Shown piece by piece: positions 1 through 31,322 of a DNA stretch of 32,000 nt. The number at the start of each line of letters is the position of its first letter. Position 1 is the first letter of the stretch. Below the pieces are notes generated by a model. The model made no database searches, was not told the DNA's origin, and saw only the letters and a program-made list of their open reading frames with translations. The DNA is from Microcystis aeruginosa NIES-843 (GTDB lineage: Bacteria > Cyanobacteriota > Cyanobacteriia > Cyanobacteriales > Microcystaceae): contig NC_010296.1 of assembly GCF_000010625.1 (NCBI RefSeq), positions 1,650,001 through 1,682,000 of the forward strand, in the 5' to 3' direction. The position numbers and the translations under genes are program-made.

Positions 1-78
1 ACAATTATTTGTAGGATGGGTTAGCGGTAGCGTAACCCATGCGGGCGTTGGGTTTCATGCTTCAACCCAACCTACGTT
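1..78. repeat. Dispersed ~78-bp repeat (family C), copy 1; paralogue at 6313-6390
   Basis: ATTATTTGTAGGATGGGTTAGCGGTAGCGTAAC...GTTGGGTTTCATGCTTCAACCCAACCTACGTT recurs almost verbatim at 6313-6390. The 3' part can form a hairpin; the stem GTAGGTTGGGTT/AACCCAACCTAC is perfect in copy 2. Confidence 0.75.
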
Positions 79-242
79 CTTCTTTTACTATTTATTTTGA
101 CTAAACATTAGTTTTAAGTCGCGGGTAAAGCCGCTGACTTTTCCAGTTTAGATTAGGTTTTTCTCTTTCCCTATCATTGTAGTGACGTAAAAACAACAAA
201 GAAAAGATTAAGGTTTTTAGTCATCATCCCTCAGCCTTGAAT

Positions 243-280
243 CAGTTATCAGTTATCAGTTATCAGTTATCAGTTATCAG
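243..280. repeat. Heptamer tandem array (CAGTTAT)x5.4
   Basis: Direct reading. The same unit recurs at 21876-21910 and inverted at 22733-22767 and 4640-4667. Confidence 0.9.
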
Positions 281-324
281 ATGTGAGTTTTCAGTTCACC
301 GATTACCGATTACAGCAAAAAACT

Positions 325-356
325 CCCCACTACCCCACTACCCCACTACCCCACTG
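325..356. repeat. Octamer tandem array (CCCCACTA)x4
   Basis: Direct reading of ccccactaccccactaccccactaccccactg. Confidence 0.9.
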
Positions 357-408
357 ATAACTGAAAAGTCTCCCCAATACCCGTTTTTACTTTCTCCTTT
401 TTACACCT

Positions 409-1443
409 ATGCTAGGAATTTTTACTCAGCTATCTCGTCCCACCAAAGTAGTGGCAATTGTCCTGGGTACTGCCCTAATTTTACCCGCCTGTGCCAATAT
501 TAATCCTCAAGACCTAAAACCAATTAAAATCGATGGTTCGAGTACCGTAGCACCAATTACCGATAAAGTTCTCGAAGATTTTAAAGCTAATACTCCTAAC
601 AAAGCTTTGGCTGATGTTAAAATTGACGCTAATATTTCAGGAACTGGCGGCGGTTTTAGAAAATTTTGTGCGGGAGAAACCGATATTAATAATGCTTCTC
701 GGCCGATTTCTGTGGAAGAATTAAAAGAATGTGATGCTAATAAGGTCAGATTTATCGAACTACCGATCGCTTTTGATGCTTTAACCGTGGTAGTCAATCC
801 CCAAAATAACTGGCTTGATGATATTTCCACCAGAGAATTAAAAACTATTTGGGAACCAGCAGCCGAGAATAAAATCAAACGTTGGAATCAAATTAATCCC
901 GCTTGGACCGACCGACCGATTACCCTTCACGGGCCGGGTAAAGATTCCGGAACCTACGATTTTTTTAGTGATGTAATTAACGGCAAAGATGCCAGTCGTG
1001 GGGACTTTAATTTTAGTGAAGATGACCAAGCTTTAGTTAATGCCGTCAGTCAAGACCCCAACGCATTAGGCTATTTTGGCCATGCTTACTATGAACAAAA
1101 TCGGGATAAATTAAAAGCTTTGAAAGTTAATGGTATTGAACCAACTCGCAGCAATGTCGAGGATAGTAAATATCAGCCTTTATCGCGTCCTTTGTTTATT
1201 TATGTTAATGCCCAAAAAGCCCAAGAGAATCCCGCTTTAGAGAAATTTGTCGAACATTATCTCGATCGAGTTCCCAATTTATTAGATAATATTGGTTATA
1301 TTCCCCTACCGGATGAGGCCTATCATTTGGCAAGGGTACAGTTGCAAAAATTTGAGGTAGGAACGGTTTTTGAGGGCAAACCTCAACCCAATTTAACCAT
1401 CGGGGAATTACTTCGTAAACAAGCCCAATTTGAAGCTAAATAG
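409..1443 (+). CDS. PstS-family phosphate ABC transporter substrate-binding lipoprotein (SphX/PstS-like)
   Basis: 344 aa. The N-terminal signal has the lipobox-like ILPAC. GSSTVAPI and later type-II periplasmic binding protein motifs are typical of PstS homologues. No pstCAB genes are adjacent. Confidence 0.85.
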   Translation: MLGIFTQLSRPTKVVAIVLGTALILPACANINPQDLKPIKIDGSSTVAPITDKVLEDFKANTPNKALADVKIDANISGTGGGFRKFCAGETDINNASRPISVEELKECDANKVRFIELPIAFDALTVVVNPQNNWLDDISTRELKTIWEPAAENKIKRWNQINPAWTDRPITLHGPGKDSGTYDFFSDVINGKDASRGDFNFSEDDQALVNAVSQDPNALGYFGHAYYEQNRDKLKALKVNGIEPTRSNVEDSKYQPLSRPLFIYVNAQKAQENPALEKFVEHYLDRVPNLLDNIGYIPLPDEAYHLARVQLQKFEVGTVFEGKPQPNLTIGELLRKQAQFEAK

Positions 1444-1622
1444 GGTTTGCGGCAAAAAGTAGGGGCGAAGCATTCGGATAGAAAATCTACGGTTTCACCG
1501 ATAGGTTATTGCCCGAATGCTTCGCCCTTACAGGACTCTCAAAATCTTGCACCTGTGGGGGCGAAACAGTACCCTAAAACTCTTACCTCGTCTATATTTC
1601 ACATTTATTCAGCAAACCCTAA
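1441..1622. mobile_element. MITE-like element, family A (termini TAGGGTTTGC ... GCAAACCCTAA), copy with a long internal hairpin
   Basis: Terminal inverted repeats lie at 1441-1450 and 1612-1622. There is an internal near-perfect inverted repeat, GTAGGGGCGAAGCATTCGG (1459-1477) / CCGAATGCTTCGCCCTTAC (1513-1531). The same termini occur at 27632-27857. No ORF. Confidence 0.65.
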
Positions 1623-1819
1623 GTAACGATTCCCATCTGGTAGGAAAATATAGCGTTTCCTGTTCGCAAGAGGTACATTGTCGATGGTGAAAAGCTTAAT
1701 CAGCAAAGGTTTGACTGTGCCACACAGGTGTGAGAAACGCTATACATAAGGATTTTCCTGCTCCTATCTGCCCCCTACTATAGCAAGAGGTTTGCCAATT
1801 TAAAGCAACAGAGATACAG

Positions 1820-1844
1820 AAAAAAAAGAGGGGATAAACCCCCC
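1820..1844 (-). terminator. Candidate intrinsic terminator of nirA
   Basis: On the minus strand, about 22 nt after the nirA stop, GGGGGGTTTATCCCCTC (6-bp G/C-rich stem, 5-nt loop) is followed by a run of 8 T. Confidence 0.55.
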
Positions 1845-1866
1845 AGCGTATCGAGAAACTTGTTAA

Positions 1867-3408
1867 TTAACCTTTCGGTGTCGCCCCAAATTGTTCGATG
1901 AGGATAGAGGTTAACACCGATTTTAAGTCTTCACAGGGAATCCCTTTTTGTACACAACTTCCCAGGTGGGCATCTTTACCCACTTTACCCCCCATGTAGA
2001 GGTCAACTCCCTCCACGGTTTTGCCGTCTTTGCGCGCTTTTGTCCCCATCAAACCGATATCGGCCACTTGGGGTTGTCCGCAGGAGTTAGGGCAACCGGT
2101 CCAATGGATCCGCACACCCCGGGGGATATTTAATTCAGCATCTAACTGACTAATCAAGTCCACAGCCCTGTTTTTGGTTTCAATCAGGGCAAAATTGCAG
2201 AATTGCGCCCCCGTACAGGAAACGAGCGCTCGTTGCAAAGGAGTGGGATTGGGGGTAAACTTAGCCAGTAAAGGCTCGCTTAAAAGAGTTGGCATATTTT
2301 CAGCCGCTATATTGGGAATAATCACGTTTTGTTCCACGGTTAAACGCAATTCTCCGCTGCCATACACTTCAGCAATCCGGGCCAAATCGAACATATCATC
2401 GGCAAATAGACGACCAACGGGAACACAAAAACCGATATAGCTCAATCCCTCCTGTTTTTGCGGAAAAACTCCTAAATGATCCCGTTTTTCCCAGTCGATT
2501 GCATCTTTTTCGGCTGCCGTTGCCAAGGGATAACCTAACTGATTAGCCACCCGCGTGCGGAATTCCTCAATTCCCCACTCATCAATTAACCACATTAAAC
2601 GGGATTTTTGACGATTGGCGCGTAATCCGTTATCGCGGTAAACTTCTAAAATTGCTCGGCATAAATCCACCACTTCCTGATTCGGTCTCACCCAAACATT
2701 GATGGGAATTGCCGCTTCACAGCGTTTAGCCGAGAAAAAGCCGCCCACCACGACATTAAAGCCTAATTCTCCCTCTTTATAGGCAGGAACAAAGGCAATA
2801 TCGTTAATTTCCGCATGAACGGAGTTATCCCGTCCCCCCTCGATGGCAATATTAAATTTGCGGGGCAGATTGCTAAATTGATAATTACCTTCACCGTAGT
2901 TGGTAATCATATCTTGGACTTTTTGGACTAATTCCCTGGTGTCAATTAATTCATCCGCATCTAGTCCCGCCATGGGTGAACCGGTAATATTTCTGACATT
3001 ATCCATGCCCGATTGTACCGAAGTCATACCCACGGATTTTAGTCGTTGGAAAATATCAGGAATATCTTCGATGCGAATACCGCGTAATTGTAGGTTTTGA
3101 CGAGTAGTAATATCGGCATTACCATCATCACCGTAACGCTGCACGATTTCCCCTAAAACGCGCATTTGCTCACTGCTGAGAATGCCGTTAGGAACCCGCA
3201 AACGCATCATGAATTTGCCCGGGGTGACGGGACGATAAAACACCCCCACCCATTTTAAGCGATGTTCTAAATCGGTTTTATCCATCGCTTCCCAACCGAT
3301 TTGGGCAAAATGATCTAGTTCATCTTTAATGGCTAATCCGTCTTTTTCGGCTTTAAATTTCTCGAATTTATTGAGAGTTGTTCCATCTTTTTCAGGTGCT
3401 TGTACCAC
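1867..3408 (-). CDS. nirA: Ferredoxin-nitrite reductase
   Basis: 513 aa. The N-terminus LNKFEKFKAEKDGLAIKDELDHFAQIGWEAM...TTRQNLQLRGIRIEDIPDIF and the C-terminal siroheme/4Fe-4S Cys cluster (SCTGAQFCNFA...TGCPNSCGQ) match cyanobacterial NirA. The length fits NirA rather than the longer Sir. Confidence 0.93.
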   Translation of the reverse strand: MVQAPEKDGTTLNKFEKFKAEKDGLAIKDELDHFAQIGWEAMDKTDLEHRLKWVGVFYRPVTPGKFMMRLRVPNGILSSEQMRVLGEIVQRYGDDGNADITTRQNLQLRGIRIEDIPDIFQRLKSVGMTSVQSGMDNVRNITGSPMAGLDADELIDTRELVQKVQDMITNYGEGNYQFSNLPRKFNIAIEGGRDNSVHAEINDIAFVPAYKEGELGFNVVVGGFFSAKRCEAAIPINVWVRPNQEVVDLCRAILEVYRDNGLRANRQKSRLMWLIDEWGIEEFRTRVANQLGYPLATAAEKDAIDWEKRDHLGVFPQKQEGLSYIGFCVPVGRLFADDMFDLARIAEVYGSGELRLTVEQNVIIPNIAAENMPTLLSEPLLAKFTPNPTPLQRALVSCTGAQFCNFALIETKNRAVDLISQLDAELNIPRGVRIHWTGCPNSCGQPQVADIGLMGTKARKDGKTVEGVDLYMGGKVGKDAHLGSCVQKGIPCEDLKSVLTSILIEQFGATPKG

Positions 3409-3582
3409 GAATCTATCTCCTTACTGGTCTCTGGGTGCAATTGTTCTAGTTGGTGCGGGTTAGAAATGAAGAAATCGGGATTTAACAATAAGTATTATTT
3501 AAAATACCGTCGTCATTAGCAAAAATTTAGTAACTTACCTAGTCTCTATCTGTTATTTAATTCGTTTTAACTTGGGTAATTT

Positions 3583-3598
3583 TGTATTGTCTGTAACA
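3583..3598 (-). promoter_or_regulatory. Candidate NtcA-type site upstream of nirA (GTTN8TAC, one mismatch)
   Basis: The minus strand reads TGTTACAGACAATACA (TGT-N10-ACA; GTT-N8-TAC versus consensus GTA-N8-TAC), about 175 nt upstream of the nirA ATG. An A/T-rich -10-like stretch (TTAAATAA) lies about 23 nt downstream. No perfect TAN3T is present. Confidence 0.3.
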
Positions 3599-3645
3599 GA
3601 AATCCGTTAACCATCGTGTTTAAGGATTTATATCATGCAGTAAGT

Positions 3646-3759
3646 GCATTGAGGGGGGGTGTGGGGTCTGGGGTGTGGGGTGTGGGGTGCATTGAGGGGG
3701 GGTGTGGGGTCTGGGGTGTGGGGTGTGGGGTGTGGGGTGTGGGGTGTGGGGTGTGGGGA
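3646..3759. repeat. (GGGTGTG)n heptamer array with a higher-order duplication
   Basis: GCATTGAGGGGGGGTGTGGGGTCTGGGGTGTGGGGTGTGGGGT occurs twice in tandem, followed by further GGGGTGT units. It then runs into GAGAATAAATAAAGGCAATCTCC and the hairpin GACTCC...GGAGTC. Confidence 0.9.
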
Positions 3760-3879
3760 GAATAAATAAAGGCAATCTCCCGACTCCTGAATACTGGCTC
3801 GGAGTCTCTTGCCCTTACCTAGCGGTTCAGGGGGTATTGTGTAAAAATAAGAAAAGATCGGTTTTTTTTTACTAAACCT

Positions 3880-4518
3880 ATGGCCACTTCTTCCATTGCC
3901 GTTAGAGAATTACCTCTCTTTCCCCTACCCGAAGTTGTTTTATTCCCGGGTCGTCCTCTGCCCCTGCACATCTTCGAGTTTCGCTATCGGATTATGATGA
4001 ATACGATATTGGAAGAAGATCGCCGTTTTGGGGTCTTAATGGTAGATCCAGCCACGGGAGAAATCGCTAAAGTCGGCAGTTGTGCCGAAGTTGTCCGTTG
4101 TCAACGTCTCCCGGACGACCGGTTAAAAATTCTCACCATCGGTCAACAGCGCTTCCGTGTCCTAGAATACGTCCGGGAAAAACCCTATCGTGTCGGTTTA
4201 GTGGAGTGGATTGAAGATGTCCCCACCACCCAAGATCTGCGACCTCTGGCCAAAGAAGTGGATCGACTGCTGCGGGATGTGGTTCATCTCTCAGCCAAAT
4301 TAACCGCTCAGAAAATTGAACTCCCCGACGATTTGCCTAGTCTTCCCCTGGAATTATCCTACTGGGTGGCGGGTAATCTCTACGGTGTGGCCGGGGAACA
4401 ACAAGCTTTATTAGAAATGCTCGATACAGTCAGTCGTCTGCAACGAGAATCGGAAATTCTCACCTCGACTCGCAATCATCTGGCCGCTCGCACGGCTCTT
4501 AAAGATGCTTTAAATTAA
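3880..4518 (+). CDS. LON peptidase substrate-binding (Lon N-terminal) domain protein
   Basis: 212 aa. LPLFPLPEVVLFPGRPLPLHIFEFRYRIMM is the characteristic start of stand-alone Lon N-terminal domain proteins. Confidence 0.8.
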   Translation: MATSSIAVRELPLFPLPEVVLFPGRPLPLHIFEFRYRIMMNTILEEDRRFGVLMVDPATGEIAKVGSCAEVVRCQRLPDDRLKILTIGQQRFRVLEYVREKPYRVGLVEWIEDVPTTQDLRPLAKEVDRLLRDVVHLSAKLTAQKIELPDDLPSLPLELSYWVAGNLYGVAGEQQALLEMLDTVSRLQRESEILTSTRNHLAARTALKDALN

Positions 4519-4567
4519 TGATCTTTAGGTTTTTCAGCTTCGGGAGATGGCAGTGGCCGTCTTATTT

Positions 4568-4667
4568 CAGTGAACAGTAAACAGTAATCAGTGAACTGAT
4601 AACTCACATCTGAAAACTGATGACTGACCCACTGATGACTGACCCACTGATAACTGATAACTGTTAA
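4568..4667. repeat. Mixed heptamer array (CAGTGAA/CAGTAAT/CTGATAA/CTGATGA units)
   Basis: 7-nt periodicity by direct reading. It contains CTCACATCTG, the inverse of CAGATGTGAG at 278-287, and (CTGATAA)n, the inverse of the 243-280 array. Confidence 0.8.
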
Positions 4668-4742
4668 TCTGGGGATTACCTAATGTTTACCTTGATACAG
4701 TAAAGTGGGGTTAAAATTGTTAGCCCCTCACCCAGGAGAACT

Positions 4743-5351
4743 TTGATCATGTTGCTGACCTATAATCCCAGCGTCTCACCCTTCCGAGAAGACTATAGCG
4801 AGAGTCGTCGGCTCCATTTTTATGATCGCGGGGAAAATATTCCTCTGGTGGTTGATGGAGTCTGGCAAGTTTATCGGGGTATGGCGCAACTAAGTCAAGT
4901 ATCTGAGAGTGGAGAGGAAATTTTACTAGGCTGGGCCCATTCATCCCACTTTTTTGGCTTAAATTTGACCCATCTAGAATCCTATCACGCCAGAGCCTTG
5001 TCGGAACTGTACCTAAAATGGTACACGATCGCCGAAGTAGAAAATTCGGCGGAATTAACTAGGATGATGTTAAATCAAATGATCCGTCGTCAACAACAAA
5101 CGGAATCGCTTCTTGCGATCGCAGGACTCAAACGAGTGGAGGAACGTCTCCAGCAGTTACTACAGTTATTAAAGCGGGAAATGGGAGAACCAATCGCCCA
5201 AGGCAGTCGTTTAAAGATCCGTTTAACCCATCAAAATCTCGCCAATGCTATCGGTACTACAAGGGTAACGGTGACGCGTTTGTTAGGCGAATTTCAGCGT
5301 CAGGGAGCCGTGAGCAGCGATTGCGATCGCCACTTAATTATTCACGATTAA
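4743..5351 (+). CDS. Crp/Fnr family transcriptional regulator
   Basis: 202 aa. The C-terminal HTH is LTHQNLANAIGTTRVTVTRLLGEFQRQGAV and a cNMP-binding-like N-terminal half precedes it. The start is TTG at 4743 or ATG at 4749. Confidence 0.85.
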   Translation: MIMLLTYNPSVSPFREDYSESRRLHFYDRGENIPLVVDGVWQVYRGMAQLSQVSESGEEILLGWAHSSHFFGLNLTHLESYHARALSELYLKWYTIAEVENSAELTRMMLNQMIRRQQQTESLLAIAGLKRVEERLQQLLQLLKREMGEPIAQGSRLKIRLTHQNLANAIGTTRVTVTRLLGEFQRQGAVSSDCDRHLIIHD

Positions 5352-5352
5352 G

Positions 5353-6270
5353 TCAGTCCCCCCCCATAATAGACTCCTTGCGGAGGTCCAATAATTGCCA
5401 AGCTAATTTAGCGGCCCCCACCATCCCAGCGCGATTACCTAACTCGGCCGTTAATACCTCTAATCCTTCTCTGGAACTAGGTAACACCCGTCCTTCGATT
5501 TCTGTGAGCAGAGAGGGAAAGAAAAACTTAGCACTGGCGCTAATGCCGCCGCCGATAATTACCGCCTCTGGAGTGAGAACATAGAGTAAACTGGCGATAC
5601 CAGCCCCCAGTAAACAGCCGTAACGCTGCCAGAATTCTAAAGCCTCTCGATCGCCTTTTTCGGCCAATTCTGCCAATTGCTTCGGTTCTTTGCCGGTCAT
5701 CCGGCGAATAGCTTGCCGGGAGACGTATTGTTCCAAGGAACCCCGATTACCGCTATTGCACAATGGACCGTCAAAATTGAGGGTTATTAAGCCTAATTCT
5801 GCGGCTGTTCCCTTGCTGCCCACAAATAAGTTACCATCGAGGATAATTGCCCCTCCTACTCCCGTCCCCAAGGTCAACAGGATCAAGTTTTGAAACCGTT
5901 TGCCCGCTCCTAACCAAGCTTCCCCCAAACCGGCACAATTGGCATCATTGGCTAAAATTGTCGGCATTCCCGTACTTTCTTCTAACCAATCGGCGAGGGG
6001 AATATCCCGCCATCCTGCCAAATTAATCGCTATTTTGGCAATTCTTCCCTGAGCATCCGCCGGCCCCGGCGTTCCCACACCGATGGCTTGACAACTTTTA
6101 TCTAAATTTACTTGACAAATGCCTTGATGTATGGTAAGGGCGACTTCTTTGGGTGTAGCGGGTTGGGGAGTGGGCAAGGTGAGAGATTCGAGACAATTGC
6201 CCTCTTGGTCAAATTTACCAATTTTAATCGCAGTTCCACCTAAATCGACACCTATTACTGTTTTCACCAT
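5353..6270 (-). CDS. ROK family protein / glucokinase
   Basis: 305 aa. IGVDLGGTAIKIG is an ATP-binding motif. ANDANCAGLGE and the GTGVGGAII motifs are typical of ROK sugar kinases. Confidence 0.85.
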   Translation of the reverse strand: MVKTVIGVDLGGTAIKIGKFDQEGNCLESLTLPTPQPATPKEVALTIHQGICQVNLDKSCQAIGVGTPGPADAQGRIAKIAINLAGWRDIPLADWLEESTGMPTILANDANCAGLGEAWLGAGKRFQNLILLTLGTGVGGAIILDGNLFVGSKGTAAELGLITLNFDGPLCNSGNRGSLEQYVSRQAIRRMTGKEPKQLAELAEKGDREALEFWQRYGCLLGAGIASLLYVLTPEAVIIGGGISASAKFFFPSLLTEIEGRVLPSSREGLEVLTAELGNRAGMVGAAKLAWQLLDLRKESIMGGD

Positions 6271-6390: not shown

Positions 6391-6768
6391 CATCTTATAT
6401 TTAATTCCACCCACCCACTTAGGTTTATTATCACTCTTTTTGGCGGTTTTTTTCGCAGTTAGATGTGATCGAGAGGATAATTCGGCTAAACCGGCAAAAC
6501 TAGCTGATTGATTAGCCCCAAATTTCTCCTATACTTTGGACACCGGCAGCTTAACTCCTGATTTTGGTTCTTCGTTACTTGGTATGGTTCGATAGGGGGT
6601 CATAAATCGACTAAATCCTTATCTGGTAAGAGACTTAATTGATTAGTTCGCTCTAGATCAAAAATAATTGACAAAAATCGCTAAATGCCTTTCTATATAA
6701 GGGTTCCATCCCTTATAACCCCCGTCCATTGCATAACAATTACCGAAGAGCCCTGATTTTTACCCATT

Positions 6769-26440: not shown

Positions 26441-27634
26441 TTGAGGAAAACCGTGACTCGTCAAGTAACTCGTCGTCCTACTAAAGTCCAATCTGGCCCT
26501 GGGTCCCCTAAGTCCATGGACTCAAACAACAAAAAAAAGTCTTTACCGGTTAAAAGGGCAAAAAAACAGCGTAAACCTAACCTAATCGCTTCTTTTCTCC
26601 TTCAGGTTCTTCGCTTCTCTATCCTTGGTGTCGGTTTAGGTGCGATCGCTGGTACGGTTTTAACGGTGGTGGATCCGAGCAAATTACCCCTACATCCAAA
26701 ACCCACCGCTACTAATTCCCCGACTCCCAAACCCGTCACCCCAAAACCGACCACGTTAGTTTTCAACGAAAATCTCAGCAGCCTCAACCAGAAATTACAG
26801 GCTTTAGCGGTCAAATATCCGAAATTACAGGCGGGAGCTTTATTTATTGACCTCGATAACGGTGCTTACGCTAATTTTCGCGGAGATACTATTTTTGCCG
26901 CCGCTAGTACGATTAAAATCCCGATTCTGGTCGCCTTTTTTGAGGATGTGGATGCGGGAAAAATTCGTCTCGATGAACCCCTTGTGGCCACTAAGGATGT
27001 CCTGGCCAGTGGGTCCGGGGATATGCAGTATCTAGGAGTGAATAAAACCTATACTGCCCTAGAAACCGCCACTAAAATGAACGTAATTAGCGATAATACC
27101 GCTACTAATATGTTAATTAAGCGTATGGGCGGCAAAGAGGCTCTTAATCAGCGTTTTCAAGCTTGGGGTTTGACCAGTACGGTAATTAATAACGCTTTAC
27201 CTGACTTGGAAGGAACCAATACCACAAGTCCGAGAGATTTGGTGACAATCTTAGGAAAAGTTAATCAAGGGGAATTACTCAGTTTACGTTCCCGCGATCG
27301 TCTATTGAATATTATGCAGGAAACGCGCACTCGCACCCTGCTGCCGCAAGGTATCGAGAAATCCGCCGATATTGCCCATAAAACCGGTGATATTGGCTCG
27401 ATGTTAGCGGATGCGGGGATTATTGATATGCCTAACGGGAAACGCTATCTAGGAGCAGTGATGGTGAAACGTCCCCACAATGATAGTAACGCTAGGACTC
27501 TGATTCAACAAATATCGCGCACGGCCTACCAACACTTTAAATGGTATCAAACTCAACCCGCAGCCAAACCGCAACCGGTCGCCCAATCTTCTCCCTCTCC
27601 TAGTCCGGTCCTTAGTCCTAGTCCGGGTAATTAG
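26441..27634 (+). CDS. Membrane-anchored class A beta-lactamase-related serine hydrolase
   Basis: 397 aa with a basic N-terminus plus a TM. The motifs are S-x-x-K (AASTIKIP), SDN (ISDNTATN) and KTG (HKTGDIG). Linkers are Pro-rich. The start is uncertain: TTG 26441, GTG 26453 or ATG 26516. Confidence 0.75.
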   Translation: MRKTVTRQVTRRPTKVQSGPGSPKSMDSNNKKKSLPVKRAKKQRKPNLIASFLLQVLRFSILGVGLGAIAGTVLTVVDPSKLPLHPKPTATNSPTPKPVTPKPTTLVFNENLSSLNQKLQALAVKYPKLQAGALFIDLDNGAYANFRGDTIFAAASTIKIPILVAFFEDVDAGKIRLDEPLVATKDVLASGSGDMQYLGVNKTYTALETATKMNVISDNTATNMLIKRMGGKEALNQRFQAWGLTSTVINNALPDLEGTNTTSPRDLVTILGKVNQGELLSLRSRDRLLNIMQETRTRTLLPQGIEKSADIAHKTGDIGSMLADAGIIDMPNGKRYLGAVMVKRPHNDSNARTLIQQISRTAYQHFKWYQTQPAAKPQPVAQSSPSPSPVLSPSPGN

Positions 27635-27857
27635 GGTTTGCGGCAAAAAGTTTTTCGTGGGGGTAGGGTGTGGGGTGTGGGGTGTGGGGTGTGGGGTGTG
27701 GGGTTTTACCCATTTTCAGGTGGTCAATTACCTAATTTTCAGGGAAAAAGTCCAGGAATTTTGCCCCCGATCCCCGCAATGGCTGGCACTTTTTGAGGTC
27801 AAAAAAGTCTAAAAGTCTTATCCAACAAGGTTTTTAGATTTATTAAGCAAACCCTAA
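27632..27857 (+). mobile_element. MITE family A, complete copy (226 bp)
   Basis: Termini are TAGGGTTTGC (27632-27641) and GCAAACCCTAA (27847-27857). An internal (GGGTGTG)n array lies at 27663-27705. No ORF. The first three bases are the stop codon of the upstream gene. Confidence 0.7.
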
Positions 27858-27864
27858 TTAGCCC

Positions 27865-28656: not shown

Positions 28657-29340
28657 ATGACAACCCTAGATATTGCTACCGATATTGTCTGTCCTCCCAC
28701 CGATTTATGGAGTGATGAACCACCCTTGGAAAGTGATCTGCATTTACAACAAATTATTTTATTATTATCTTGTCTTGATTGGCTCTGGCAAGATAGAAAC
28801 GATTACTATGCCTCGGGCAATTTGACTATTTATTATAACGAAAGACAACTAAAACAGCGAGATTTTTGTGGCCCAGATTTTTTCGTGGTTTTAGATACAG
28901 AGAAACGTCCCCGGAAAAGTTGGGTTGTCTGGGGAGAAGGGGGTAAATATCCCAATCTAATCATCGAAATTCTCTCCGATTCCACCACTAATGTGGACAG
29001 AAAAGCCAAAAAGGAACTATATCAGCATACTTTCCGGACTCCTGAATATTTTTGGTTTGATCCTAATACTTTAGAATGGCAAGGATTCACTTTAATCGAG
29101 GGACAATACCAACCGATTACCCCCAATGAAAACGGTTATTTATGGAGTAAGCAACTAGGATTATATTTAGGAATTTTTGCCAATAAATTGCGCTATTTCA
29201 CCGAATCAGGTGAATTGGTTCCCACCCCTCAAGAGTCGGCCCGACAGGAAAGATTAGCCAAAGAAAGAGAACAACAACGGGCGGAAAAATTAGCCCAAAA
29301 GCTGCGAGAATTGGGCATTAATCCCGATGAAATTGCTTAA
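28657..29340 (+). CDS. Uma2 family (DUF820) endonuclease with a C-terminal charged coiled-coil tail
   Basis: 227 aa. PDFFVV and IIEILSDST are core motifs. The tail RQERLAKEREQQRAEKLAQKLRELGINPDEI is common in cyanobacterial Uma2 proteins. Confidence 0.85.
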   Translation: MTTLDIATDIVCPPTDLWSDEPPLESDLHLQQIILLLSCLDWLWQDRNDYYASGNLTIYYNERQLKQRDFCGPDFFVVLDTEKRPRKSWVVWGEGGKYPNLIIEILSDSTTNVDRKAKKELYQHTFRTPEYFWFDPNTLEWQGFTLIEGQYQPITPNENGYLWSKQLGLYLGIFANKLRYFTESGELVPTPQESARQERLAKEREQQRAEKLAQKLRELGINPDEIA

Positions 29341-29512
29341 ATATCCTGTTGGAGGTGTTAGGGTGGAAACCATGGCGCAATTTTTCCTTAATTGCTAGGC
29401 ATTAAAACGAGTAATCCGAAACTCTGATTCTAGCCTAGAAATCATGGCAAAATCTCCACACTGATGTTACAATAATGACCAAGGGCAACAATCTTCAAAT
29501 ATAATTAATGCC

Positions 29513-30577
29513 ATGGTGCAAAAAATAGCTTTTTTTAATCATAAAGGTGGAGTCAGCAAAACTACAACCACTTTTAACCTTGGTTGGATGCTTGCTGAGA
29601 AGGGTAAAAGAGTAATTATTGTCGATACCGATCCCCAATGTAACTTAACTGGTATGGCTTTGGCTAAAGAAAGTGAAGATAGGGAGGAAAGACTACAAGC
29701 CATCTACAATACTTACTCTAATATTAAAACAGCTTTAGCACCTGCTTTTGAGTCTCAACCGAGATTAATTGAAGCTGTGGACTGTATTCCTATTGATGGT
29801 CGTGATCGTTTATTTCTATTGCCCGGTCATGTGGGATTAGCTGAATATGAAGTTATCCTAGGTATTGCTCAAGAACTTAGTGGGTCAATTCAGGCTTTAA
29901 AAAATCTCCCCGGTGCGATTACATATTTATTAGACAAAACTGCCGAAAGATTTGAAGCTGACTATATTTTAATCGATATGAGTCCCAGTTTGGGGTCAAT
30001 CAATCAAAATATACTGATGACCAGCAACTTTTTTATTGTGCCAACCACAGCGGATTTTTTCTCGGTTATGGCTATCGATTCTTTAACTAAAATCTTGCCT
30101 AAGTGGCACCAATGGGCTAAGGCAGCTAGTGCTTTACCAATTCTCAAAACAGCCAACTATCCCTTTCCCGAAGTTGACCTACATTTTTTGGGAACTATTG
30201 TTCAGAAATATCGAATCATAGGTGGCCAAGAAACAAAAGCTTTTCAAAACTGGATTAACACAATCGAGGAAAATATCGGCAATAAAATGATTCCAGCTTT
30301 AGAAAGAACTGGCATGATGCTACCGAAATTTATCTACGATCAGAATGGTGTACCGGCTTGCTGTACTCTAGTAAAAATACCTGATTTTAATAGTCTTATT
30401 GCCTTATCTCAAGAGCATCAAACGCCCGTTTTTGCGCTAACTGCTGAACAATTAGGATGGCAAGGTACAGTGTTAGATCAAGCCCAAGAAAAACAACAAA
30501 AATTTAAAGATATTTTTTCTGACTTAGCAGACAAAGTTATCGGTCTTACCTCCGAGATTTATGCAGTTAGCCATTGA
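29513..30577 (+). CDS. ParA/MinD-superfamily P-loop ATPase (deviant Walker A), long form
   Basis: 354 aa. The deviant Walker A is KIAFFNHKGGVSKTTT (29543-29563). The A' motif is VIIVDTDPQCNLT and Walker B is ILIDMSPSLG. It is about 100 aa longer than typical ParA and no parB-like gene is adjacent. Confidence 0.85.
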   Translation: MVQKIAFFNHKGGVSKTTTTFNLGWMLAEKGKRVIIVDTDPQCNLTGMALAKESEDREERLQAIYNTYSNIKTALAPAFESQPRLIEAVDCIPIDGRDRLFLLPGHVGLAEYEVILGIAQELSGSIQALKNLPGAITYLLDKTAERFEADYILIDMSPSLGSINQNILMTSNFFIVPTTADFFSVMAIDSLTKILPKWHQWAKAASALPILKTANYPFPEVDLHFLGTIVQKYRIIGGQETKAFQNWINTIEENIGNKMIPALERTGMMLPKFIYDQNGVPACCTLVKIPDFNSLIALSQEHQTPVFALTAEQLGWQGTVLDQAQEKQQKFKDIFSDLADKVIGLTSEIYAVSH

Positions 30578-31322
30578 ACAATTTCGCCTTAGTCTTGCCC
30601 GCGTTCGTGACTTGATCGCTATCCACAATTCCCTCAAATCTCAGACTACTTCCGCCCTAGATGTATCGGATATCCTCAGAGCCGCTTTAGTCCTGACTGT
30701 GAGCGCTTTAGATTATTATATTCACGAAGTGGTTACTCTAGGAATGCTAGAAATTTATCGAGGCCAACGTTCAGAACCTTCTCCCACTCCTAACAGTTCT
30801 CAATCTGCCTTTTCTCGTTTTCAAGTCTCCTTGAATGGCGCACGACAAGAACGATTGATAGCTATTAGTATTGGCTCTTGGTTAGAGAACGAAATTCAAC
30901 AAAACTACGGTTCTTTTTTTGATCAAGAATCTCGCTCAATTTCCGAGGTACTACCAATGATTGAAAATCTCCTCACCAACAAACTTAATAGTAATTATTG
31001 GCTAGAGACTGAAATTAGAGAAAACCTCAGATATAAAAGCTTTCAACAACCGGACAAGATAGCGGAGGCCATTAGATTAATTTCAGCCAAGAAATTGTGG
31101 GAAGAAGTGGCCAGCAAACTAAATAAACCAGCCAAAGATATTAAAAGCCAACTTAGCATAATTGTTGATCGAAGGAACAAAATCGCCCACGAAGCTGATA
31201 TAGACCCGAGTTATGGCATTGGCAGTCGCTGGAATATCGATGAAAATCTCGTTAATGATGCCGTTACCTTTATAGAACAGCTTGTTGAAAATATCCATCA
31301 GGTACTTGAGGACATCCACTAG
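30561..31322 (+). CDS. Predicted HEPN-domain protein (Rx4H motif; RiboL-PSP / MAE_28990-like class suspected)
   Basis: 253 aa and all-helical in appearance. VDRRNKIAHEAD carries R205-x4-H210 (31173-31190) in the C-terminal third, as in HEPN RNases. The start codon lies 17 nt inside the ATPase gene. Confidence 0.6.
   Translation: MQLAIEQFRLSLARVRDLIAIHNSLKSQTTSALDVSDILRAALVLTVSALDYYIHEVVTLGMLEIYRGQRSEPSPTPNSSQSAFSRFQVSLNGARQERLIAISIGSWLENEIQQNYGSFFDQESRSISEVLPMIENLLTNKLNSNYWLETEIRENLRYKSFQQPDKIAEAIRLISAKKLWEEVASKLNKPAKDIKSQLSIIVDRRNKIAHEADIDPSYGIGSRWNIDENLVNDAVTFIEQLVENIHQVLEDIH

Follow-up and report, generated by a model that had tools for sequence, protein, structure and literature searches.

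A module in which the gene encoding a ParA/Soj-like ATPase is paired with the gene for a HEPN protein is known from a computational study. Anantharaman, Makarova, Burroughs, Koonin and Aravind (2013, PMC3710099) predicted a toxin-antitoxin (TA) dyad of this kind, in which the ATPase was proposed to be the antitoxin and a HEPN protein of the MAE_18760 family, named after the gene with this tag, the ribonuclease (RNase) toxin. The RiboL-PSP-HEPN family was described in the same work as distantly related to AbiD/AbiF (PMC3710099). Our literature searches returned this computational prediction only and no experimental study of a ParA/Soj-HEPN module. Here we describe a gene pair of the same architecture in Microcystis aeruginosa NIES-843. 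It resides in a stretch of 32,000 nucleotides (contig NC_010296.1, positions 1,650,001 to 1,682,000), hereafter called the window, and consists of overlapping genes for a ParA/Soj-type ATPase and a HEPN-family protein (Table 1). The two genes form one conserved unit that is found on chromosomes, prophages and plasmids, and most likely constitute a toxin/regulator or phage-defence module.

The protein encoded by the upstream gene is an exact match to BAG01697.1/WP_012265160.1 of M. aeruginosa NIES-843. Its Walker A, A' and B motifs are all intact, in full agreement with a preliminary description of the locus that had been made from the sequence alone, and it scores 108 bits against Pfam AAA_31 and 55 bits against CbiA. 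A Foldseek search with its AlphaFold2 model (predicted template modelling score 0.84) returned 3PG5 as the top match (E 2e-10), followed by Soj (1WCV/2BEK, E 1e-8), NifH/BchL, BcsQ and McdA, with a match probability of 1.00 for both 3PG5 and Soj. By motifs, Pfam and modelled fold, the protein is a genuine ParA/SIMIBI ATPase, and it belongs with the ParA/Soj/MinD ATPases on account of its motifs as well as its ParA/Soj-like fold. Among 90 homologues, most retain the Walker A sequence NHKGGVSKTT and 4 to 6 have a degenerate version of it; about 85 of the 90 loci encode an ATPase whose motifs are intact. Two cysteines, Cys43 and Cys91, are invariant across all 31 of the 31 aligned ATPases, including forms encoded on Pf prophages and plasmids and forms with destroyed nucleotide-binding motifs, and the DPQCN sequence around the first of them is shared by 3PG5. 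Paired cysteines in other SIMIBI dimers provide bridging metal or Fe-S sites, and by analogy it is conceivable that the ATPase is subject to redox or metal control through Cys43 and Cys91.

The product of the downstream gene matches BAG01698.1 of the same strain exactly. It reaches 56.3 bits against PF18735 (HEPN_RiboL-PSP; cut-off 28.4), a family that is matched by 51/51 of its aligned relatives. The preliminary description had mentioned a different Pfam family, PF18737 (MAE_28990/MAE_18760-like), as a candidate, and the protein does not reach it: the score of 17.2 bits lies under the gathering threshold of 26.8, and only 11 of the 51 relatives match this family, with a best E value of 3e-4. 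PF18737 shares the same stretch of the protein with further matches below threshold, namely to HEPN_Swt1, HEPN_Apea, the Csx1 model of PADLOC and an abortive-infection PHROG. The sequence RRNKIAHE, which had already been pointed out as the HEPN motif, contains three residues (R204, R205 and H210) that are invariant in our alignment A2, and since Rx4H is kept in 89 of 90 homologous loci, its occurrence is not due to chance. A second motif, written SALDxYIHE across the family, is conserved alongside it. By its PF18735 profile match and its motif, the protein is a HEPN-family protein, and both the Rx4-6H motif and the match to a curated model place it in the HEPN superfamily. The AlphaFold2 model is all-helical, with a predicted local distance difference test (pLDDT) score of 83.7. 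Two insertions (Table 1) distinguish the ~250-aa form seen in cyanobacteria from the family's ~200-aa form, which lacks them; the stretch concerned is modelled as a helical hairpin with lower confidence (pLDDT 66-76).

Both open reading frames (ORFs), of 354 and 253 codons, were found exactly as originally described, and the coding sequence of the second begins 17 nt before the end of the first. An identical 17-nt ATG...TGA overlap recurs in 79 of 93 loci across phyla, and from the arrangement of start and stop codons translational coupling of ATPase and HEPN synthesis is likely. A genome scan with the HEPN protein yielded 80 loci, all of them cyanobacterial, and in 78 of these the HEPN gene is directly preceded by the ATPase gene. 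The two exceptions are a locus at a contig end (L004) and a locus from a Stigonema metagenome-assembled genome (MAG; L022). In 16/16 further loci from other phyla, Burkholderia plasmids, Pseudomonas Pf prophages and viral contigs, the ATPase gene was again found directly upstream, such that the genes are neighbours in 94 of 96 loci when searched from the HEPN side. Look-ups starting from the ATPase led to a PF18735 gene downstream in 3/3 cases. Of the outcomes that the preliminary description named as refuting its reading, none of the three computational ones came about: the second protein has a HEPN-family match above threshold, the genes are conserved as neighbours, and no ParB-family gene is listed beside the ATPase in the approximately 30 loci whose gene tables were read, and neither a ParB nor a replication gene occurs within the window. 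The two proteins also vary together, as the pairwise-identity matrices of ATPase and HEPN are correlated with r = 0.88 (Mantel p = 0.001).

Many filamentous and bloom-forming cyanobacteria contain the pair, among them nearly all of the Microcystis assemblies examined. Sequence identity amounts to 65-75% across cyanobacterial orders (Nostocales, Oscillatoriales, Chroococcales and Leptolyngbya-like lineages) and, for ATPase and HEPN alike, to 50-60% in alignments across phyla. The HEPN family as a whole comprises more than 1000 clusters at 50% identity and consists mainly of proteins of ~200 aa that have neither insertion. Such short forms are encoded in Terriglobia, Zixibacteria, Tectomicrobia and others, and in 5/5 contexts examined a gene for a ParA-like protein of ~351 aa is located upstream. 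Microcoleus-type cyanobacteria contain both the long and the short form. Most copies of the pair reside on chromosomes, remote from any replicon function. The cassette is also carried on mobile elements: it is present on conjugative plasmids of Burkholderia glumae, within the accessory region of P. aeruginosa Pf prophages, among them the Pf5-type prophage AY324828 (L089), where it adjoins att, in Pseudomonas phage WX-TY next to the integrase gene, and in five IMG/VR contigs. Two of these ATPases, one from the Pf5 prophage and one from the Burkholderia plasmid, were compared directly with the window ATPase and align with it over the full length at 35-38% identity (E 4e-64 and 5e-79). Flanking regions are unrelated between lineages. 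In a Terriglobia locus (L082, 602-3479) the pair lies beside MazE/PIN and an HTH-Peptidase_M78 gene, and in one IMG/VR contig (L093, 616-2831 and 5694-6302) beside a DUF2924 gene, a gene for a large serine recombinase and one for a small RelA_SpoT-domain protein; both neighbourhoods resemble defence-island or cargo regions. Flank synteny was also considered as a means of distinguishing mobile from vertical transmission within cyanobacteria and proved uninformative, as flanks are conserved within genera and different between orders.

Note that the public record of the Pf5-type prophage (AY324828.1, 2977-4519) represents the pair incompletely. The annotated 'Orf317, similar to Soj' starts 78 nt late, whereby Walker A is lost, and the overlapping HEPN ORF at 4001-4519, which adjoins att, has been left unannotated.

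Loci in which one of the genes has changed or decayed give clues to regulation. In Crocosphaera (L009, L024 and L025) and Prochlorothrix (L079), the ATPase ORF is of full length and Walker A, A' and B are destroyed, with Walker A degenerated to NYEFGFSQEI or NHNGGDSTAL. The HEPN protein encoded beside these degenerate ATPases keeps RRNKIAHEAD. In Crocosphaera, identity to the window proteins is about 50% for the ATPase and 71-74% for HEPN. That a dead ATPase persists next to an intact HEPN motif is easier to reconcile with inhibition by binding than with enzymatic modification or with activation driven by ATP. In Microcystis, the HEPN gene has been pseudogenised repeatedly while the ATPase gene is intact, and the protein cluster contains many truncated members. 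Frameshifts in the HEPN gene were found in L006 (at about 6153) and L077 (at about 6444), and in L069 the gene is broken by a 95-nt insertion at 6541-6635 that resembles a miniature inverted-repeat transposable element (MITE) with the terminal inverted repeats ATAGCGGT/ACCGCTAT; the ATPase gene is intact in all three. Loss of HEPN with retention of the ATPase is the decay pattern expected of a toxin gene. In a Crocosphaera MAG (L078, 2393-2966) both genes are affected, the ATPase by an internal deletion of residues ~175-331 and HEPN by truncation.

From these findings we infer a self-contained, horizontally mobile cassette of two translationally coupled genes. Activity of HEPN enzymes arises when two Rx4H motifs meet in a dimer, and the RNase of the cassette would become active in the same manner. 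A dimer of the ATPase would bind the HEPN protein and hold it inactive, which would make it an antitoxin acting by sequestration, and the nucleotide state of the ATPase may tune its hold on HEPN. Should this hold be lost, the RNase would be set free; the trigger might be ATP depletion, loss of the cassette itself or a factor from a phage. Cleavage of RNA and growth arrest would follow and would serve either to abort infection or to maintain the mobile element. We consider the odds of this specific reading, a coupled toxin/regulator cassette in which the HEPN RNase is kept in check by a dimer of the ParA-type ATPase, to be about even. Points in its favour include the gene order, enzyme first and HEPN second, which parallels that of HepT-MntA, and the same proposal in PMC3710099. 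The interpretation offered in the preliminary description, which regarded the ATPase as sensor, regulator or antitoxin of the HEPN effector, is supported as far as the sequences can speak for it.

Several observations weigh against the cassette being a conflict system with a HEPN toxin held by its ATPase. A Foldseek search with the HEPN model against PDB and BFVD gave no significant match (best E 0.35), the structures of HepT, AF_0298 and Csm6 appearing with E values of 1-4 and probabilities of at most 0.25, and a sequence search of PDB with HEPN found nothing. The structural check suggested in the preliminary description delivered a confident helical model and no significant similarity to solved HEPN structures, so that it is the Pfam profile together with the motif that carries the HEPN assignment. 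The literature searches found no experiment on a ParA/Soj-HEPN module, and PADLOC, a search that had likewise been suggested, does not recognise the pair. In the Stigonema MAG mentioned above (L022), HEPN is intact without an ATPase: in comparison with L014, ~1.25 kb of unrelated DNA (4736-5986) stands in place of the ATPase gene and ends 14 nt before the HEPN ATG. This could be a real orphan or an artefact of MAG assembly. In Raphidiopsis brookii D9 (L075), the ATPase carries a C-terminal frameshift at 5916-5928 and HEPN is intact. Both cases argue against a simple antitoxin, as neither is expected if free HEPN is lethal. Furthermore, the degree to which both proteins are conserved is unusual for a conflict system, with the identities given above across cyanobacterial orders and other phyla, and in Microcystis the pair occupies a fixed, syntenic chromosomal site among housekeeping genes.

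The tolerated orphan in L022 and the tolerated ATPase frameshift in L075 would be more readily accommodated if the ATPase were not an inhibitor but a sensor that detects an invader, for instance a protein of a phage or foreign DNA through non-specific DNA binding of the ParA type, and then activates the RNase by an ATP-dependent change, similar to ATPase-nuclease defence pairs such as PARIS. Intact motifs in the great majority of ATPases suggest that nucleotide turnover matters, and the presence of the pair on prophages and plasmids and beside other TA or defence-like genes would also be in line with such a sensor-activator. We nevertheless regard it as unlikely, since lineages with a catalytically dead ATPase keep a well-conserved HEPN, which is hard to explain if activation needs ATPase activity, and since the PADLOC models resemble the pair at the P-loop only. 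Less probable still is a domesticated housekeeping function in cyanobacteria, in which an enzyme of RNA processing or turnover would be controlled in its activity or location by a ParA-type positioning ATPase without any conflict being involved. The high identity between cyanobacterial orders, the fixed site in Microcystis, where 359 blocks of the assembly collection list the HEPN protein in identical form, and the insertions that distinguish the HEPN form seen in cyanobacteria from the short form would all agree with domestication; against it speak the presence of the same cassette in Pf prophages, viral contigs and conjugative plasmids, its occurrence between different flanks in unrelated phyla, the coexistence of long and short forms in Microcoleus-type cyanobacteria and the frequency of pseudogenes within Microcystis. 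A true partition module, in which the downstream protein would be an unusual adaptor resembling ParB or the partner that binds the centromere, is highly improbable: the order of ParA and a small overlapping partner as in type Ib par loci, the match to PHROG 164 'ParA-like partition protein' (E 4.8e-46) and the carriage on plasmids and episomally replicating Pf phages are outweighed by a partner that has an invariant RNase motif and no match to a DNA-binding family in the Pfam search, by an NCBIfam ParA_partition score of 64.3 bits, far under the cut-off of 180, by the chromosomal location of most copies, distant from replicon functions, and by the finding of a HEPN partner where a par locus would have ParB, with no centromere-like repeat array adjoining the genes.

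Restraint of the HEPN RNase by the ATPase, if it applies, could take a form that would amount to a new class of toxin control or anti-phage defence. ParA dimers bind the nucleoid, and a ParA-type switch that restrains a HEPN RNase might be bound there or be controlled by redox state or metals via the two cysteines, releasing the RNase upon infection or loss of the element, with bloom-forming cyanobacteria and P. aeruginosa Pf prophages sharing the same device. We put this forward as a tentative and rather doubtful possibility. If the 2013 prediction is true, a widespread family of RNase toxins is controlled by a partition-type ATPase, and for such an ATPase acting as antitoxin or sensor no experimental study was found in the literature. 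As hosts with the pair, including P. aeruginosa with its Pf prophages, Burkholderia glumae with its plasmids and cyanobacteria, are genetically easy to manipulate, the prediction can be tested directly.

Landmark genes suggest that the locus is very probably MAE_18750/MAE_18760 itself and hence the prototype of the 2013 prediction; the assignment is derived from the positions of MAE18390 and MAE18410 and not from an annotated record. MAE18390 is the monocistronic gene for a phosphate-binding protein in the NIES-843 genome paper (PMC2779907), and MAE18410 is nirA according to a transcriptome paper; the window has a gene for a periplasmic phosphate-binding protein at its start and a gene for a NirA-type nitrite reductase (Table 1). 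The HEPN gene lies ~27 kb past the nirA landmark, with 23 large and several small ORFs in between, corresponding to roughly 30-35 genes, and gene counting leads to a tag of about MAE_1872x to MAE_1876x. The placement of the protein by Pfam in PF18735, and not in PF18737 which bears the MAE_18760 name, is not entirely in keeping with this identity. Estimation of the tag by UniProt accession arithmetic (anchor B0JQN8 = MAE_08750) was discarded, as it is inconsistent with genome order. The locus thus represents a re-discovery of a published computational prediction and not a new kind of system. The claim that no characterised system has this architecture stands insofar as neither an experimental study nor a PADLOC match was found, and has to be amended insofar as the architecture is already known from that prediction (PMC3710099). 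New here are the findings that the 17-nt overlap is conserved across phyla, that Pf prophages and plasmids carry the pair, that pseudo-ATPase variants occur naturally, that two cysteines of the ATPase are invariant and that 3PG5 is the closest solved structure.

The gene order in Microcystis is Glrx-like, Uma2, ATPase, HEPN and ABC1 kinase, and the other neighbours of the pair in the window are housekeeping genes. As stated in the preliminary description, a Uma2 gene is indeed located immediately upstream of the pair. It accompanies the pair in Microcystis only and was therefore rejected as a third component of the module. Start calls for the Uma2 gene vary between Microcystis assemblies (L097-L106), resulting in proteins of 227, 234 or 241 aa. 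In Thermoleptolyngbya (L108), a Uma2 gene and a DDE transposase gene are found near the pair, on its other side. A promoter-like site, ATGGCA-18-TACAAT with TG extension, is situated ~40 nt 5' of the ATPase start in the 172-nt gap that follows the Uma2 gene; this consensus match is weak evidence that the pair may have its own promoter. The description of the stretch as rich in MITEs was borne out in part, in that one inverted-repeat element of ~239 bp was identified, which holds a G-rich 14-nt tandem repeat at 27659-27707. The spacing between the genes for a beta-lactamase-like and the Glrx-like protein varies among Microcystis strains, and this variation is consistent with an insertion polymorphism of the element. 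At its beginning (1-5351), the window also holds a gene for a protein with a Lon-substrate-binding domain and a gene for a Crp-family regulator.

Table 1 Features of the M. aeruginosa NIES-843 window (32,000 nucleotides), ordered by position.
Feature	Position	Strand	Basis or remark
Periplasmic phosphate-binding protein gene	409..1443		Pfam; start of window
NirA-type nitrite reductase gene	1867..3408	-	Pfam
Inverted-repeat element of ~239 bp with 17-nt terminal inverted repeats GGGTAATTAGGGTTTGC / GCAAACCCTAATTAGCC	27625-27863		
Uma2 gene	28657..29340		Pfam; immediate upstream neighbour of the pair
Promoter-like site ATGGCA-18-TACAAT with TG extension	29444..29473	+	Consensus scan alone
ParA/Soj-type (SIMIBI, deviant Walker A) ATPase gene	29513..30577	+	354 aa, ATG start
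Deviant Walker A KGGVSKT (residues 11-17; signature K11, catalytic K16)	29543..29563	+	Sequence reading
Walker A' / switch I VDTDPQ, followed by invariant Cys43	29621..29638	+	ATPase alignment
Cys43 (DPQC) and Cys91 (VDC) of the ATPase	29639-29641 and 29783-29785	+	Invariant
Walker B ILIDMSPSLG (D155)	29966..29995	+	ATPase alignment
ATPase/HEPN overlap of 17 nt (ATGCAGTTAGCCATTGA), with HEPN start codon and ATPase stop codon	30561..30577	+	Sequence reading
HEPN-family protein gene (RiboL-PSP-HEPN, PF18735), predicted RNase effector/toxin	30561..31322	+	253 aa, ATG start
Conserved N-terminal HEPN motif SALDYYIHE (S48, D51 and H55 invariant)	30702..30728	+	Alignments A1 and A2
HEPN insertions, residues ~72-79 and ~98-138	30774..30974	+	Alignment A2, representative search, AlphaFold2 model
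HEPN catalytic motif RRNKIAHE (R205-x4-H210)	31170..31193	+	Sequence reading

When compared with known systems, the pair could not be assigned to any described defence system, as no full-length match of both proteins to one system was obtained with PADLOC-DB v2: the ATPase matches PDC-M28B at residues 3-40 only, i.e., at the level of the P-loop, and the best HEPN matches have E values of 0.015 and 0.027. The proposed logic recurs in PARIS (AriA-AriB), where a nuclease effector is under the control of an NTPase partner, and in the abortive infection systems with HEPN proteins (AbiD/AbiF and RnlA-RnlB), where the suicidal effectors are HEPN RNases; by sequence, the pair is a member of neither. 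Type Ib ParA-ParB loci (ParF-ParG) and Soj-Spo0J share with it an ATPase of the ParA fold with a deviant Walker A motif and a small partner gene directly downstream. In those systems the partner is a ribbon-helix-helix or helix-turn-helix centromere binder, whereas here it is a HEPN protein and no centromere-like repeats were found; in addition, the window ATPase is ~100 residues longer than Soj and remains under the NCBIfam partition cut-offs. For the ATPase itself, the closest solved structure is DIP2308 of Corynebacterium diphtheriae (PDB 3PG5), an uncharacterised protein of 361 aa from structural genomics, which is related by sequence (E 2.6e-25 with the family profile) as well as by fold and shares the unusual DPQCN switch-I sequence, with good alignment confined to the N-terminal ~200 residues. 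Among TA modules, the type VII system HepT-MntA is comparable as a mobile and widespread pair in which a small Rx4H HEPN RNase is coupled downstream of the gene for a neutralising enzyme, and by analogy the ATPase may have the neutralising role here. In HepT-MntA, the role of antitoxin falls to an MNT nucleotidyltransferase, by which the toxin is AMPylated. The partner in the window is a ParA-type ATPase without a match to a nucleotidyltransferase family, such that AMPylation is not expected; HepT belongs to DUF86 and not to PF18735, and the HEPN model shows no significant similarity to HepT structures. The 2013 ParA/Soj-HEPN dyad differs from the pair in the window insofar as HEPN falls into PF18735 (56 bits) and stays below the threshold of PF18737 (17 bits). 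Its architecture is the same, a gene for a SIMIBI ATPase followed by a small gene for an Rx4H HEPN protein; M. aeruginosa NIES-843, the organism of the family namesake, is the same; and so are the roles proposed for the two proteins.

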